Shown in pieces: positions 1,013 to 6,755 of a stretch of 6,755 bases of DNA. The position numbers were made by a program, and so were the translations under genes. The DNA is from a virus (taxonomy: Duplodnaviria; Heunggongvirae; Uroviricota; Caudoviricetes): IMG/VR virus record IMGVR_UViG_2706794690_000012, one strand, 5' to 3'. The notes beneath the pieces are model-generated. The model did no database searches, was not told the DNA's origin, and worked only from the letters and a program-made list of their open reading frames with translations. Position 1 is the first letter of the stretch; each line of letters begins with the position of its first letter.

Positions 1013-1495
1013 ATGACGAAGAAAAAAGCACATAAACCTGGTTCAGCGACCATCGCGCTTAACAAGCGCGCCCGTCACGAATACTTTATCGAAGAAGAGT
1101 TCGAAGCGGGACTTGCCCTGCAAGGCTGGGAAGTTAAATCCCTGCGCGCAGGAAAAGCCAATATCAGCGACAGCTACGTCCTTCTGCGTGACGGAGAGGC
1201 ATTTCTGTTTGGCGCTAACATCACGCCAATGGCCGTGGCCTCCACGCATGTGGTGTGCGATCCTACCCGTACCCGCAAGTTACTTCTCAACCAGCGCGAA
1301 CTGGACTCATTGTACGGTCGCGTCAATCGAGAAGGCTATACCGTAGTGGCGCTCTCCCTGTACTGGAAAAATGCCTGGTGCAAAGTGAAAATCGGCGTCG
1401 CCAAAGGTAAAAAACAGCACGATAAACGTTCAGATATCAAAGAACGCGAATGGCAGGTGGATAAAGCACGTATCATGAAAAACGCCCACCGTTAA
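1013..1495 (+). CDS. smpB: SsrA-binding protein SmpB (trans-translation factor), 160 aa
   Basis: Complete [67 protein letters not shown]...; I recognise this as enterobacterial SmpB. It lies immediately upstream of ssrA, as in E. coli. Confidence 0.95.
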
Positions 1496-2072: not shown

Positions 2073-2190
2073 CTTTTGACAGGACTGCAACCGGACAGAG
2101 ACTATAAAAACAGTCACTTACGGACACTGACCAGACAGTAAGCGGACCAGAAAAAGACAAAAATATACACGCAAAATGCACGTGCATTTC

Positions 2191-2226
2191 AAAAAAGCCT
2201 CTGATTATGAAGTCAGAGGCTTTTCT
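2191..2226. terminator. Bidirectional rho-independent terminator between ssrA and the convergent phage tail operon
   Basis: Perfect 8-bp stem GCCTCTGA (2197-2204) / TCAGAGGC (2213-2220) with an 8-nt loop, flanked by A6 (2191-2196) and TTTTCT (2221-2226). It lies about 45 nt past the stop of the last minus-strand ORF (2271) and about 120 nt past the ssrA 3' end. Confidence 0.6.
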
Positions 2227-2270
2227 AGTTGTAAATAAGGGTAACAATTTAACACGATGCAGCTTACCAA

Positions 2271-2492
2271 TTACGTAACATCAAACGCTCTAATTGTTCC
2301 CAAATCCTCCAGACCACTCAGCTCCTCTTTCATTTCACGCTGACGGCGATAAATCTCATCGTTGCGATCGACCTGCGCCTGCACCATTGCTGCCGCCAGT
2401 TCTTCCAGTTCCGGCATCGACAGTTTCACCTGCTGATTATCGGCATCACCCCACGCCATATGCGTTTGTGCTGTGACAGATTTTGCCAGCAT
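2271..2492 (-). CDS. Hypothetical small protein (73 aa from the ATG; frame open upstream to 2525), predicted helical; possibly the C-terminal part of a frameshifted tail-fibre chaperone
   Basis: Codon usage is E. coli-like (ctg gaa gaa ctg gcg gca gca atg gtg cag...). It is the last ORF before the terminator in the tail-fibre operon. No clear RBS precedes the ATG at 2490-2492. It overlaps the preceding ORF in another frame. Confidence 0.4.
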   Translation of the reverse strand: MLAKSVTAQTHMAWGDADNQQVKLSMPELEELAAAMVQAQVDRNDEIYRRQREMKEELSGLEDLGTIRAFDVT

Positions 2493-2700
2493 GACTACCG
2501 GGGACAGGCGGCCCAGTGAGTCGGGCTATCTCACCCCATTTGCCACTTTGCAGTTCCTGCCAGATTCGCTGACCCGTCGGTGCGACATCATCAGCGGTGG
2601 CTGTGTAGGGGACTGCCTGGTCCCTGTCGTCAAAAAAAACGTCACAGTCTACTGCGCCACTTTCGGTATAACGGGGATTAATGATTTTTTTAATTTCCAC
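2446..2700 (-). CDS. Hypothetical protein (84 aa, GTG start) directly downstream of the Stf-like gene; possible N-terminal part of a tail-fibre assembly/chaperone protein
   Basis: An in-frame GTG at 2698-2700 is preceded by GAGGAA with a 6-nt spacer, directly after the Stf stop (TGA 2711-2713). The ORF-track ATG at 2758-2760 would overlap Stf by 50 nt. The product ends in a proline-rich stretch (LTGPPVPG) reminiscent of Tfa inter-domain linkers. Confidence 0.4.
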   Translation of the reverse strand: MEIKKIINPRYTESGAVDCDVFFDDRDQAVPYTATADDVAPTGQRIWQELQSGKWGEIARLTGPPVPGSHAGKICHSTNAYGVG

Positions 2701-2710
2701 GGTGCATTCC

Positions 2711-3979
2711 TCACGATGTGCGAATAAAAAGCCCGGGCATTGCGCCAGAGACATGAGCATCCGGCACCCCGGACAGGGCGCTATATGACCCCGGTAATGA
2801 ATGCTCTGAACATCCCGTAATGAAAAATTGTGGGGATGCTATATACGTTCCGGTGGGAGTACTGGGCACTGAAATCCCCACCGGTCCCAGTCGTGAGCCT
2901 CTGTATGACTGCCCCCTGACAAGTCTGATGACTTTATCACCGTCAGCTTCTCCCTGGTACGCAGCAATAATCAGCCCGCCAATGTCAGGGTCTCCCCATC
3001 TGTTGCAGACAGAGCTCGCCACGATTCTGTAAATAATATCTTCTGTGGTTATATTTATTTTCACCCAGCCAGTCAGTCTGGATATGGGCCAGTAGCAGTA
3101 GCGGGTGTGATAAATGGGGCCGTTAATGCCGTAAAAAGTAAGGGATTTGGCTCTGTACCTCGGTTCTGTTGTCTCAGGGCGTGCATCAGTCCACCGGATG
3201 CTGAGCACCCCTTCAAACCGTGTGTCGGGTATGATGATGTCGTAGGGGCCAGCAACGGAATATTCACCTGGCAGCGCATTCCTTACCCAGGCCAGGAAAT
3301 CACTCTTAGTGTCAAAACGGATAACATCTTCAGGCAGAAAAGCACACCCAAAGCCGAATGCGCCGGGTATCGCCAGACGGCCTTTTGTCCGGTCGTAAAT
3401 GTCGCTCTGTGCTTCCATCGTGGCCGCACTTTTCAGCCCCAGATTATCCCGGGACTTCTGTTGTGCCTTTTCGCCTGCTGCTGCGATTTCAGACAGATGG
3501 TTAGCCGTTTTCAGAGTGCCGGTCAGCGCAGCATCAATGTCATTTTTGGCCTGCTCTGCTGCGCGGGCATAACCTGCGGCTGCCGCCACATCCTGCGCCG
3601 TCTGCTGTGCGTTTCCGGCTGCGGCCCCGGCGCTCTGCTGCGCCTGCGCCACCATTTCCTCAAAGCGTTTGACGACATCCGGTTTCAGGTCGCCCTCATC
3701 AGGAGCAATCAGAAAGTCATTCAGCGTGCCGGGCTTTGAGTCGTCGTATACAGCAATGTCGCCAACACAGTACTCGTCGCGCCAGTCCCGTTTCAGATAC
3801 ACGCAATATTTTCCGACCTGTGCCTCAAACGAATATTCACCGTTATTTCCGGTCACTACATCAGCCCTGGTACGCATCACCACTTCTGAGGTGTTTACAC
3901 GGGATTTCAGAATAATCTGGCATCCGGACATGGGGATGCCTGCGCCATCAGTCAGCGCACCTGATATCACTACAGACAT
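2711..3979 (-). CDS. Side tail fibre protein, 422 aa, with a lambda Stf-like N-terminal domain, an Ala/Gln-rich shaft and an unrecognised C-terminal region
   Basis: The N-terminus MSVVISGALTDGAGIPMSGCQIILKSRVNTSEVV...VYDDSKPGTLNDFL parallels lambda Stf (MAVKISGVLKDGTGKPVQNCTIQLKARRNSTTVV...VYEDSQPGTLNDFL; recalled from memory). This is followed by an AAAGNAQQTAQDVAAAAGYARAAEQAK-type shaft. The last roughly 230 aa have no family I recognise. Confidence 0.85.
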   Translation of the reverse strand: MSVVISGALTDGAGIPMSGCQIILKSRVNTSEVVMRTRADVVTGNNGEYSFEAQVGKYCVYLKRDWRDEYCVGDIAVYDDSKPGTLNDFLIAPDEGDLKPDVVKRFEEMVAQAQQSAGAAAGNAQQTAQDVAAAAGYARAAEQAKNDIDAALTGTLKTANHLSEIAAAGEKAQQKSRDNLGLKSAATMEAQSDIYDRTKGRLAIPGAFGFGCAFLPEDVIRFDTKSDFLAWVRNALPGEYSVAGPYDIIIPDTRFEGVLSIRWTDARPETTEPRYRAKSLTFYGINGPIYHTRYCYWPISRLTGWVKINITTEDIIYRIVASSVCNRWGDPDIGGLIIAAYQGEADGDKVIRLVRGQSYRGSRLGPVGISVPSTPTGTYIASPQFFITGCSEHSLPGSYSALSGVPDAHVSGAMPGLFIRTS

Positions 3980-4002: not shown

Positions 4003-4548
4003 TCAGGAAGAACCTTCCGGAGAGACGGACCATTCAATGGCGTTATATGAGGATTTATCAGTGATGGTGCTGAAATCCATCGCCTGCAGCGATTTCGCGT
4101 AAATACGGTACGCTTTCAGTTTTTCCCGGTCTTCGTCGCTGATTAGCCCCAGCAGCAGGTCTTCTTCCCATTCCCCTGTCCGGGCACTGACCTGAGCCAG
4201 AAGGGCATCACGCTCATCTTCCGCTTTGAGTCTGTAGTCAAAGACAAATTCATCATTGCGGTAAAACCAGTAACCCGGCGCGGTAATGCGGCGGTTGGCG
4301 GTAATATCAGGAACTTCAATAACACTGGCGTTACGGGGTTCAATGCCTGTCACATCCTTACCGACCCACACCACGCGCCCGTCTCCGGTGTAAACCATTT
4401 TTATGGTGTCACTGGCAAAGTTCTTCTGTTCTTCATACCAGTTTTTGCCGTCTTCCGAAAAAAGCCAGGTGACATCATACTGTTTTGTCAGCTGATATTA
4501 TTCCGCGGTTTTCGGATTACCTGCCGTAATATTTTTTAAATGCAACAT
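4003..4548 (-). pseudogene. Tail-fibre assembly protein (Mu U / TfaE-like) interrupted by an in-frame ochre stop at codon 17; the ORF track shows only the distal 131-aa part (4003..4398)
   Basis: The ATG at 4546-4548 sits 2 nt after the upstream tail-fibre stop (TAA 4551-4553). It reads MLHLKNITAGNPKTAE, then TAA at 4498-4500, then continues in the same frame YQLTKQYDVTWLFSEDGKNWYEEQKNF...ITANRR...IEWSVSPE. The N-terminal signature matches Mu U / TfaE-type proteins (MHLKNI.AGN.KT..QY.LTK...DGKNWYEE) as I recall them. Confidence 0.6.
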
Positions 4549-4550
4549 TG

Positions 4551-5603
4551 TTAAATACTCGCTACGTTATACCAGGTGCCATTAATCAGTTTTTGCAGCG
4601 GTCGGTAATACACGCCGTTGACGTTATCCGCTGAGTTACGGCCGGTATCCGATATCGATATCCCTGACAGCCCGTGTCCCGAAGGTGAGCGAAATGTCCA
4701 CGAAACGGTGTTACTGCCGGGGGGGTAATACATTTCATAACCATACCGCACATCCTGCACGCCACCATTTCGCTGCTGGTAACGGGCATCAAAGTTTCCG
4801 TAGTCTGACGGTGTTACCCGTCCTGTAACGTTTACAGCTTTATTACTCTGGATACTGCCACTCTGAAAACGCAACACATGCACGCTATTGGCATAAACAT
4901 CCAGCAGGCCATCACCATTCTGTTTGAATCCGGTGTCATTATCACCAAGAACAATTGAATTCCCCCCCAGGGCGTTCTGAACGCCGATACCCAGCGCACC
5001 ATTGACCTGCGAACCACCGCCAACAGACACTTTATGCGACATGGATATTTCACCCGTCCGCAGATTAATGGTGAACGGGCGCAGGGGACCAATATCGCCA
5101 TTTTCCCCCTGACCTTCACTGGTGGGAATAAGGTGCAGGCACTCTTCCGAACGACGAAAAATCAGGCCAAAAGCTTCGTTGAAAATCCTCAGCGCATTAA
5201 CACCACGGATTTTCAGCTCTCCGGTCATGGTGTCGCCATCACGCTGAACGGCATTTTTTGCCTTATCCACCGTGGGTTTTAATCCGAGGTTTTCAACAGC
5301 CTCATCCCTGTCTTCCACATCCGAAAGGTTATTTTTTATCAGCAATGCCTCTTCGTTAATTGCACCGCCCACCAGCAATAATATAGCCTTATATAGCTGG
5401 TCGTGTTCTTCTTTATTCAGTTCTATCCCGGCCTTCTCAATGACACCACAGATTTCCTCCTGAATGGCATTCCACATGGCACTGTTCAGCCAGGTAGCAA
5501 GACGTCCTGTGCGAAGATTTCCGTCAGTAAATCCGTTCTTACCCGGACCAAACTTATCTTTTACCGCAGTCAGCGTATCAATCCTGTGCATCTTCATCCT
5601 CAT
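4551..5603 (-). CDS. Tail fibre protein (Mu S-like), 350 aa
   Basis: The N-terminal motif FTDGNLRTGRLATWLNSAMWNAIQEEICGVIEKAGIELN resembles the conserved N-terminal region of Mu S-type tail fibres. The C-terminal part is Gly/Asn/Ser-rich. It is followed 2 nt later by the Tfa start. Possible starts at 5603, 5597 or 5591 all overlap the upstream gene. Confidence 0.8.
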   Translation of the reverse strand: MRMKMHRIDTLTAVKDKFGPGKNGFTDGNLRTGRLATWLNSAMWNAIQEEICGVIEKAGIELNKEEHDQLYKAILLLVGGAINEEALLIKNNLSDVEDRDEAVENLGLKPTVDKAKNAVQRDGDTMTGELKIRGVNALRIFNEAFGLIFRRSEECLHLIPTSEGQGENGDIGPLRPFTINLRTGEISMSHKVSVGGGSQVNGALGIGVQNALGGNSIVLGDNDTGFKQNGDGLLDVYANSVHVLRFQSGSIQSNKAVNVTGRVTPSDYGNFDARYQQRNGGVQDVRYGYEMYYPPGSNTVSWTFRSPSGHGLSGISISDTGRNSADNVNGVYYRPLQKLINGTWYNVASI

Positions 5604-6168
5604 CTGGATAGGAAAATAAAACGACGGTGTGTGACGGACATAATTTATTAATCACGCACTCCGCAACCGTATCCCCCCACGTCCGGATCGGTGTGTTGCA
5701 GGCGTCCGTGCATGTCTGCCACTGAGCACCGGCATCCATCGGCAACGTCACACGCCAGAAATAACGCCAGCGATCTCCCCATTCCGGATCGGGGCTTGCA
5801 TCCAAGTGCTGGAACTGTTCGATCGTTACGCCGGTATATCCCAGCGCCTCAAGCTGATCCAGGAAGAACTGCTCATTTATGCCACCAGCCACATTGGCTT
5901 TTGCTTCAAGACGTTGCTGACGCTGGCGTAATGTCTGGGTTCCGACAGGGGAACAGGAATCAGGTAAACCATACAATTCTTCATAACGTTCAATCAGCTC
6001 TGTGGACTGACCGGGATCGATTTCAATCACCAGTTCATCAGCCCGCTGGTGAACACGCACAAGCGATGGTGCCAGACCGTCAAGTACACCGTCGGTATCT
6101 GACCATGCAGGCCCCGGCGGCATCAGTCCGTACAGCAGCTTTGTATAATCATCCTGTAACGAATCCAT
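5578..6168 (-). CDS. Phage tail protein, Mu gp48 / P2 gpI / YmfQ-like (DUF2313-type), 196 aa
   Basis: The N-terminus MDSLQDDYTKLLYGLMPPGPAWS and the C-terminal TWGDTVAECVINKLCPSHTVVLFSY follow the pattern of YmfQ/gp48-like tail proteins (from memory). It sits between the baseplate J-like and tail-fibre genes as in Mu and P2. Its ATG (6166-6168) overlaps the upstream stop in a TAATG arrangement. Confidence 0.75.
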   Translation of the reverse strand: MDSLQDDYTKLLYGLMPPGPAWSDTDGVLDGLAPSLVRVHQRADELVIEIDPGQSTELIERYEELYGLPDSCSPVGTQTLRQRQQRLEAKANVAGGINEQFFLDQLEALGYTGVTIEQFQHLDASPDPEWGDRWRYFWRVTLPMDAGAQWQTCTDACNTPIRTWGDTVAECVINKLCPSHTVVLFSYPDEDEDAQD

Positions 6169-6566: not shown

Positions 6567-6755
6567 GCCAACCGTTCCAGTGCCTTTCCAGTGTCTGAAA
6601 GTCCATGCACGGTTAATACCCTGAACTTCTTTCGCCCAGATAACATAATCAGGGTCTGCGCCCCCGGTGATGCTGCCAACTTACTGATTTAGTGTATGAT
6701 GGTGTTTTTGAGGTGCTCCAGTGGCTTCTGTTTCTATCAGCTGTCCCTCCTGTTC

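Follow-up and report, generated by a model that had tools for sequence, protein, structure and literature searches.

Two overlapping reading frames behind a Shigella sonnei prophage tail fibre gene are very probably the two ends of one broken DUF4376 gene

What are the two small, overlapping reading frames that lie between a tail fibre gene and a terminator-like hairpin next to ssrA: two genes, one gene expressed through a frameshift, or the remains of a single gene? They occupy positions 2271–2700 (minus strand) of a 6,755-nt stretch of DNA, the whole of which was analysed and is referred to here as the window. It consists of the end of the Mu-like prophage tail module of a Shigella sonnei draft contig, together with the chromosomal genes at ssrA. 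The window is identical to CWSU01000173.1 at all unmasked bases, and differs from CWTT01000193.1 (NCBI collection) at 6 positions. The original prediction considered a divergent tail fibre chaperone split by a frameshift or, alternatively, two independent cargo genes. Our analysis indicates that the two frames are very probably the front and back ends of one broken DUF4376 gene.

The chromosomal genes of the window are yfjF and ratA (both minus strand), smpB (1013–1495, plus strand) and the tmRNA gene ssrA (1710–2072). The prophage genes are all on the minus strand. They comprise a baseplate J fragment of the Mu-like tail module, gp48/YmfQ (5578–6168), a first fibre gene (4551–5603) with a Caudo_TAP assembly gene behind it (4003–4548), and an Stf-like fibre gene (2711–3979), whose 422-aa product contains the prophage tail fibre N-terminal domain (PF08400, E = 2.4e-63). 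The region under study follows. A terminator-like hairpin and a subsequent U-run on the same strand (2190–2227; −20.6 kcal/mol, z −5.4) close the fibre operon just short of ssrA.

The left end of an IS1 element, which comprises the terminal repeat GGTGATGCTGCCAACTTACTGAT and the beginning of insA, is present at 6667–6755, where it interrupts the baseplate J gene at the contig end. Finished genomes have an IS1 InsA/InsB pair at this spot in baseplate J, and an IS4-family transposase after yfjF at the position of the other contig end. Thus, the contig has an IS copy at either end, a typical feature of Shigella drafts. The Caudo_TAP gene has an in-frame TAA at codon 17 (4498–4500), where the relatives L003 and L004 have CAA (Gln), and its sole listed ORF is a 131-aa frame from an internal methionine. 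Since the TAA is also found in finished S. sonnei genomes, this pseudogene is real. In two finished genomes (L017 and L021; CP032523 and CP044191), identity to the window ends at about window position 2035, within the 3′ end of ssrA, and a further integrase-bearing element lies beyond this point, so that the ssrA attachment site is occupied in tandem. In two records labelled E. coli (L001 and L003; FDAARGOS_943 and 944), an ipaH type-III effector gene, either ipaHa or a frameshifted ipaHe, is located just past the DUF4376 gene, in the cargo position that the original prediction had in mind. These two records look like enteroinvasive or Shigella-type genomes.

Both predicted reading frames are present, and both are on the minus strand, a point absent from the original prediction. 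The 73-aa ORF starts with ATG and covers 2271–2492. The other frame covers 2446–2760 if it is read from an upstream ATG (104 aa), while a GTG at 2700–2698 gives the 84-aa form. The two overlap in different frames by 47 nt (2446–2492). Direct reading of the sequence bears out the GTG start and its GAGGAA ribosome-binding site (2707–2712, minus strand), which overlaps the Stf stop codon (TGA, 2713–2711) and is separated from the GTG by a 6-nt spacer. The GTG is 10 nt past this stop codon. A ribosome-binding site that overlaps the preceding stop is an arrangement typical of coupled translation. The annotated (RefSeq-style) start is the ATG at 2760, which would result in a 50-nt overlap with stf. 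Homologues in L002 and L004 begin at the position equivalent to the GTG, and the 187-aa GTG form is probably the true product of the intact gene. There is no obvious ribosome-binding site before the 73-aa ORF. In product look-ups, a 102-aa form was found on 2 contigs only, and no record was found for the 104-aa product.

The family of the two ORFs is readily assigned. The 73-aa ORF matches Pfam DUF4376 (PF14301) with 33.9 bits (E = 4.7e-8; the gathering score is 25 bits), covering only positions 47–96 of the 106 in the profile. The intact protein, reconstructed by restoring the missing 134 nt, matches over residues 70–174 and profile positions 1–96 (61.6 bits, E = 1.1e-16). Thus, the window does not encode a complete DUF4376 domain, as profile positions 1–46 fall in the missing stretch; finished genomes carry the complete domain. 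The 84-aa ORF has no Pfam match because it corresponds to the variable N-terminal part of the protein, outside the domain. Both ORFs are recognized by phrog_1141, a 194-position PHROG profile named "tail fiber protein": the 84-aa ORF at positions 4–65 (E = 2.9e-24), the 73-aa ORF at positions 118–190 (E = 1.3e-26), and the intact protein collinearly at positions 4–190 (E = 7.7e-88). The window therefore encodes both ends of this family without its middle. It is this homology, rather than their length, that marks the two ORFs as more than chance open frames. DUF4376 is formally a domain of unknown function. The original prediction recognized neither product, whereas the 73-aa product already has an NCBI name, [quoted passage not shown]. 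Its suggestion of a divergent Tfa or tail-assembly chaperone does not hold, since PF02413 (Caudo_TAP) matches neither ORF nor the intact protein at E values up to 1, and the family is DUF4376; the ORF at 4003–4398 in the same window matches PF02413 with E = 7.3e-21. A sequence search of the PDB returned nothing meaningful (best E = 0.15).

Comparison with related prophages revealed a single uninterrupted ORF, which finished S. sonnei genomes also have at the very same locus. A megablast search of window positions 2100–2800 against 5,426 complete E. coli genomes matched a single gene annotated as "DUF4376 domain-containing protein", always behind a gene for a "prophage tail fiber N-terminal domain-containing protein". 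The best of these matches are in two pieces, with 677 nt spanned for 543 nt of query, and none of the 5,426 genomes has the arrangement of the window over at least 80% of 2100–2800. Alignment to the homologues of L001 (207 aa) and L002 (188 aa, also adjoining ssrA) places the difference in the middle of the gene, where 134 nt are missing from the window. Many finished S. sonnei chromosomes encode an Stf identical to the 422-aa protein of the window. Where ssrA and smpB adjoin it, as in CP022457, CP151357, CP049163 and CP110404, the next gene is an uninterrupted 624-nt DUF4376 ORF, whose product is 207 aa from the annotated ATG or 187 aa from the GTG. The window and CP022457 are 100% identical on either side of the gap, and only gene positions 236–369 are absent. 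The reconstructed protein exists verbatim in the databases as P0121 (207 aa), on 502 contigs of up to 4.9 Mb, and 74 contigs carry its 187-aa GTG form (P0136). The 134 nt are present in each of the ten finished or near-finished chromosomes inspected. The DUF4376 ORF is uninterrupted in eight of them, and the other two (L018 and L019) have single-base frameshifts elsewhere in the gene. In these two and in a further long-read assembly (L025), single-base homopolymer indels, e.g. at window positions 2639, 4968 and 6237, break several genes of the locus; they look like uncorrected long-read errors, not biology.

The aligned intact genes also define which parts of the two ORFs are native. The 5′ fragment (2526–2700) encodes residues 1–59 of the 187-aa protein (VEIKK...WGEIA) in the native frame. 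The remainder of the 84-aa ORF (2446–2525) is an out-of-frame tail of 25 codons and a stop, and the same bases are native coding sequence in the other frame. This tail is the Pro-rich "linker" of the original prediction (RLTGPPVPGSHAGKICHSTNAYGVG, 25 residues), which turns out to be the 3′ part of the gene read in the wrong frame. The native frame of the 3′ fragment extends over 2271–2525 (84 codons and a stop). The 73-aa ORF within it begins at an internal methionine of the intact 207-aa protein and matches its residues 135–207 exactly.

Taken together, the two ORFs are very probably the ends of one DUF4376 gene, which follows the Stf-like fibre gene in the Mu-like tail module of a decayed S. 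sonnei prophage at ssrA and, in this contig, lacks 134 nt (gene positions 236–369) in its middle, corresponding to the first long helix and a β-hairpin of the DUF4376 domain. As 134 is not a multiple of three, the frame shifts. The 5′ part then runs out of frame for 25 codons to a stop, yielding the 84-aa ORF, while the 3′ part survives as an ORF from an internal methionine, the 73-aa ORF. The earlier split-gene idea stands insofar as the pieces belong to one gene at the fibre-helper position; the cause is a 134-nt gap, however, and not a point frameshift.

The contribution of the missing stretch (about 45 codons) was assessed with a structure model (pLDDT 85) of P0041, a homologue from E. coli with 78% identity to the reconstructed query. 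The lost residues, 59–103, map to a helix (residues 65–88) and a β-hairpin (91–102) of this model, and 17 invariant alignment columns fall within the missing stretch. With the helix, the hairpin and these positions lost, even a fusion that restored the frame would be crippled. Judged from the sequence as written, neither fragment should yield a working protein. A Foldseek comparison of the homologue model with viral models returned other DUF4376 proteins, and the evidence of the fold on function is mixed.

The missing 134 nt belong between window positions 2525 and 2526 (break point at 2507–2526, minus strand), with a 3-nt GGG/CCC ambiguity at 2523–2525. The break coincides with a pair of imperfect direct repeats. 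One copy, R2, is kept in the window at 2507–2525 (CCCGACTCACTGGGCCGCC on the gene strand, gene position 370), and the other, R1 (CCCCATTCACTGTGACACC, gene position 236), is lost. They are identical at 14 of 19 positions and are spaced 134 nt apart, with a CCC microhomology at the crossover. This score is the best in the gene, and R1/R2 is one of 3 such pairs among ~180,000 pairs of 19-mers. The junction of the window is GAGATAGCCCGACTCACTGG; on the gene strand it reads GAGATAG before the break and CCCGACTCAC after it. The product of this type of junction is found on 2 contigs only. A separately deposited assembly, L005, has exactly the same junction with R2 kept. In L006, R1 is kept instead of R2, with the same net length and 5 clustered mismatches. 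A third junction, in L007, has lost ~17 nt more and has a 51-nt poly-A filler nearby.

We consider the chances of an assembly error and of a true deletion as the origin of this gap to be about even, leaning slightly to error. By the first of these explanations, which we judge to have marginally better than an even chance of being correct, the gap is a draft-assembly artefact, produced by scaffolding or gap closing through a two-copy repeat, and the isolate carries the intact 207-aa gene. The repeat is created by a second S. sonnei DUF4376 gene, which adjoins sitABCD (in L026–L030; product P0019 or P0025, 207 aa). The ssrA and sitABCD copies share 580 nt exactly, consisting of the last 287 nt of stf and the first 293 nt of the gene; differences in the sitABCD copy occur at gene positions 293, 348 and 373, and the two copies diverge from position 390. 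An IS element cuts off the repeat upstream of the sitABCD copy. The missing piece lies inside the stretch common to the two copies, and all three versions of the junction have their right-hand end at, or immediately beside, position 373 or 390. We also considered that the left end of the gap may be a k-mer node boundary, at 293 minus ~55–57, i.e. ~237. The three junction versions occur among otherwise near-identical S. sonnei drafts. Their backgrounds differ, L006 having a private SNP at 2782 and L007 a T at gene position 143 (window 2618), the allele of the finished genomes L017, L021 and L022, so that a single inherited deletion does not explain the three versions.

The same gene is damaged in other drafts as well, which also favors an artefact. 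In at least 21 sister contigs from the same project, it contains a scaffold "N" 65 nt further on, with the loss of 15 nt, and a contig of SKESA type, from another assembler, ends at window position 2493. Further support comes from the presence of the 134 nt in every finished or near-finished chromosome inspected, and from the rarity of the junction product, which is on 2 contigs only. Searches with the exact junction and with degenerate versions (R1, R2 and mosaic) found none in GTDB species genomes or JGI metagenomes; these negatives carry no information, since the collections place Shigella within E. coli. Against an artefact, the end points lie on the 14/19 direct repeat, where a random mis-join would almost never land, and end points on a repeat pair are the signature of a homology-driven event. 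The assemblers behind these drafts were presumably Velvet, SSPACE and GapFiller. These programs join by exact overlaps, so that a gap-free junction should require spanning reads, and this would count against an artefact, as does the occurrence of the same junction in two separately deposited assemblies.

The second explanation is that a few S. sonnei isolates truly lost the segment by slipped mispairing between R1 and R2, which would add another pseudogene to the remnant. This is possible, though we put it somewhat below an even chance. End points exactly on repeats, together with a microhomology at the crossover, have the classic look of slipped mispairing, and either R1 or R2 is kept at the same net length, as recombination between the repeats predicts. 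The exact agreement between the junctions of the window and L005 is consistent with a deletion, and the remnant is decaying in finished genomes too, as seen from the TAA at codon 17 of the Tfa-type gene and the IS1 in baseplate J. However, three junctions on different backgrounds would require the event to have happened independently several times, at a repeat that is poor (5 mismatches in 19 positions). When folded as single-stranded DNA, the missing segment has no unusual hairpin to promote slippage (z −0.46), and the deletion was seen in no finished genome and in no contig longer than 10 kb. That the loss is real and also recurrent, with the DUF4376 gene of several S. sonnei lineages inactivated by independent deletions at R1/R2, seems improbable to us; if true, it would imply a local deletion hot spot, or selection against a fibre-helper gene in a prophage remnant.

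The two remaining explanations concern the ORFs themselves, and we regard both as next to impossible. The first treats them as independent small accessory ("moron") genes, a reading that has in its favor the cargo position at the end of the fibre operon and the ipaH effector genes just past the DUF4376 gene in related elements; but the two ORFs are collinear with a single family profile, on non-overlapping parts of phrog_1141, and with one 207-aa protein, the 84-aa ORF ends in 25 out-of-frame residues, the 73-aa ORF begins at an internal methionine without a recognizable ribosome-binding site, and no relative has them as two genes. The second, a programmed +1 frameshift in the 47-nt overlap that would produce a ~160-aa fusion, draws on the superficial likeness of the two-frame overlap to recoding sites, whereas a single ORF, longer by ~45 residues at this point, encodes each of hundreds of homologues, the fusion would still lack the helix, the hairpin and the 17 invariant positions, and the two-frame layout is limited to a handful of draft contigs and is not conserved in relatives.

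Gene conversion between the ssrA and sitABCD copies is suggested by the mixed alleles that some lineages show at the ssrA copy (an Asn variant at gene position 373, and HMAWS in L025). The Asn variant (GPNSL) was at one point regarded as an assembly chimera in sister contigs; this idea was dropped, as the long-read assembly L025 and the protein P0123 carry the same allele. In L009–L015, the stretch lost at the scaffold "N" is equivalent to window positions 2449–2463. The proteins P0001–P0004 (200 and 202 aa), which derive from contigs with the scaffold "N", lack the residues HMAWG, and this 5-aa "deletion" in nr and UniRef is artefactual.

Should the gap in the window stem from an assembly error, the gene would be intact in the organism and the term "broken gene" would describe the record alone. 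In practical terms, where a Shigella draft shows small, overlapping ORFs at the close of a fibre operon, these can be the fragments of a multi-copy prophage gene on either side of a gap. Public protein records can inherit such defects, as in the case of the 73-aa "partial" protein and of P0001–P0004.

Intact copies of the gene are common among Shigella and E. coli, and the family, its genomic position and its probable role are already on record. The DUF4376 gene is directly downstream of the fibre gene in the window and in all relatives. Based on this position and on the Pfam domain shared with distant DUF4376 proteins that have been studied, the intact protein most likely acts as an intermolecular chaperone for the folding or trimerization of the upstream fibre. 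The 422-aa Stf-like fibre would be its presumed client, and the overlap of the ribosome-binding site with the Stf stop codon fits a helper role.

How does this locus compare with known systems? The Tfa/Caudo_TAP proteins, such as lambda Tfa and Mu U, are alike in their position behind a fibre gene and in their presumed helper role. They differ in belonging to the PF02413 family, unmatched by the ORFs of the window or by the intact protein. The closest counterpart is the DUF4376 protein of the ssrA remnant in other S. sonnei genomes (P0121, or P0136 in the WP-type form). It is the product of the same gene with the same neighbors, the 422-aa Stf, ssrA and smpB, and the copy in the window differs in the absence of gene positions 236–369, hence the broken frame. 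Functional precedents are provided by intermolecular tail-fibre chaperones of distant phages, established by experiment: by gp27 of Alteromonas phage V22 (PMC7289586) and gp9 of Alteromonas phage A5 (PMC10579305), DUF4376 proteins encoded directly behind the fibre gene and needed for a functional fibre, and by the Campylobacter CJIE1 prophage, where the DUF4376 gene downstream of the H-fibre gene is likewise needed for a functional fibre (PMC7882524). All three proteins have a C-terminal DUF4376 domain and a variable N-terminal part, and their genes are located immediately behind the fibre gene, as is the case here.
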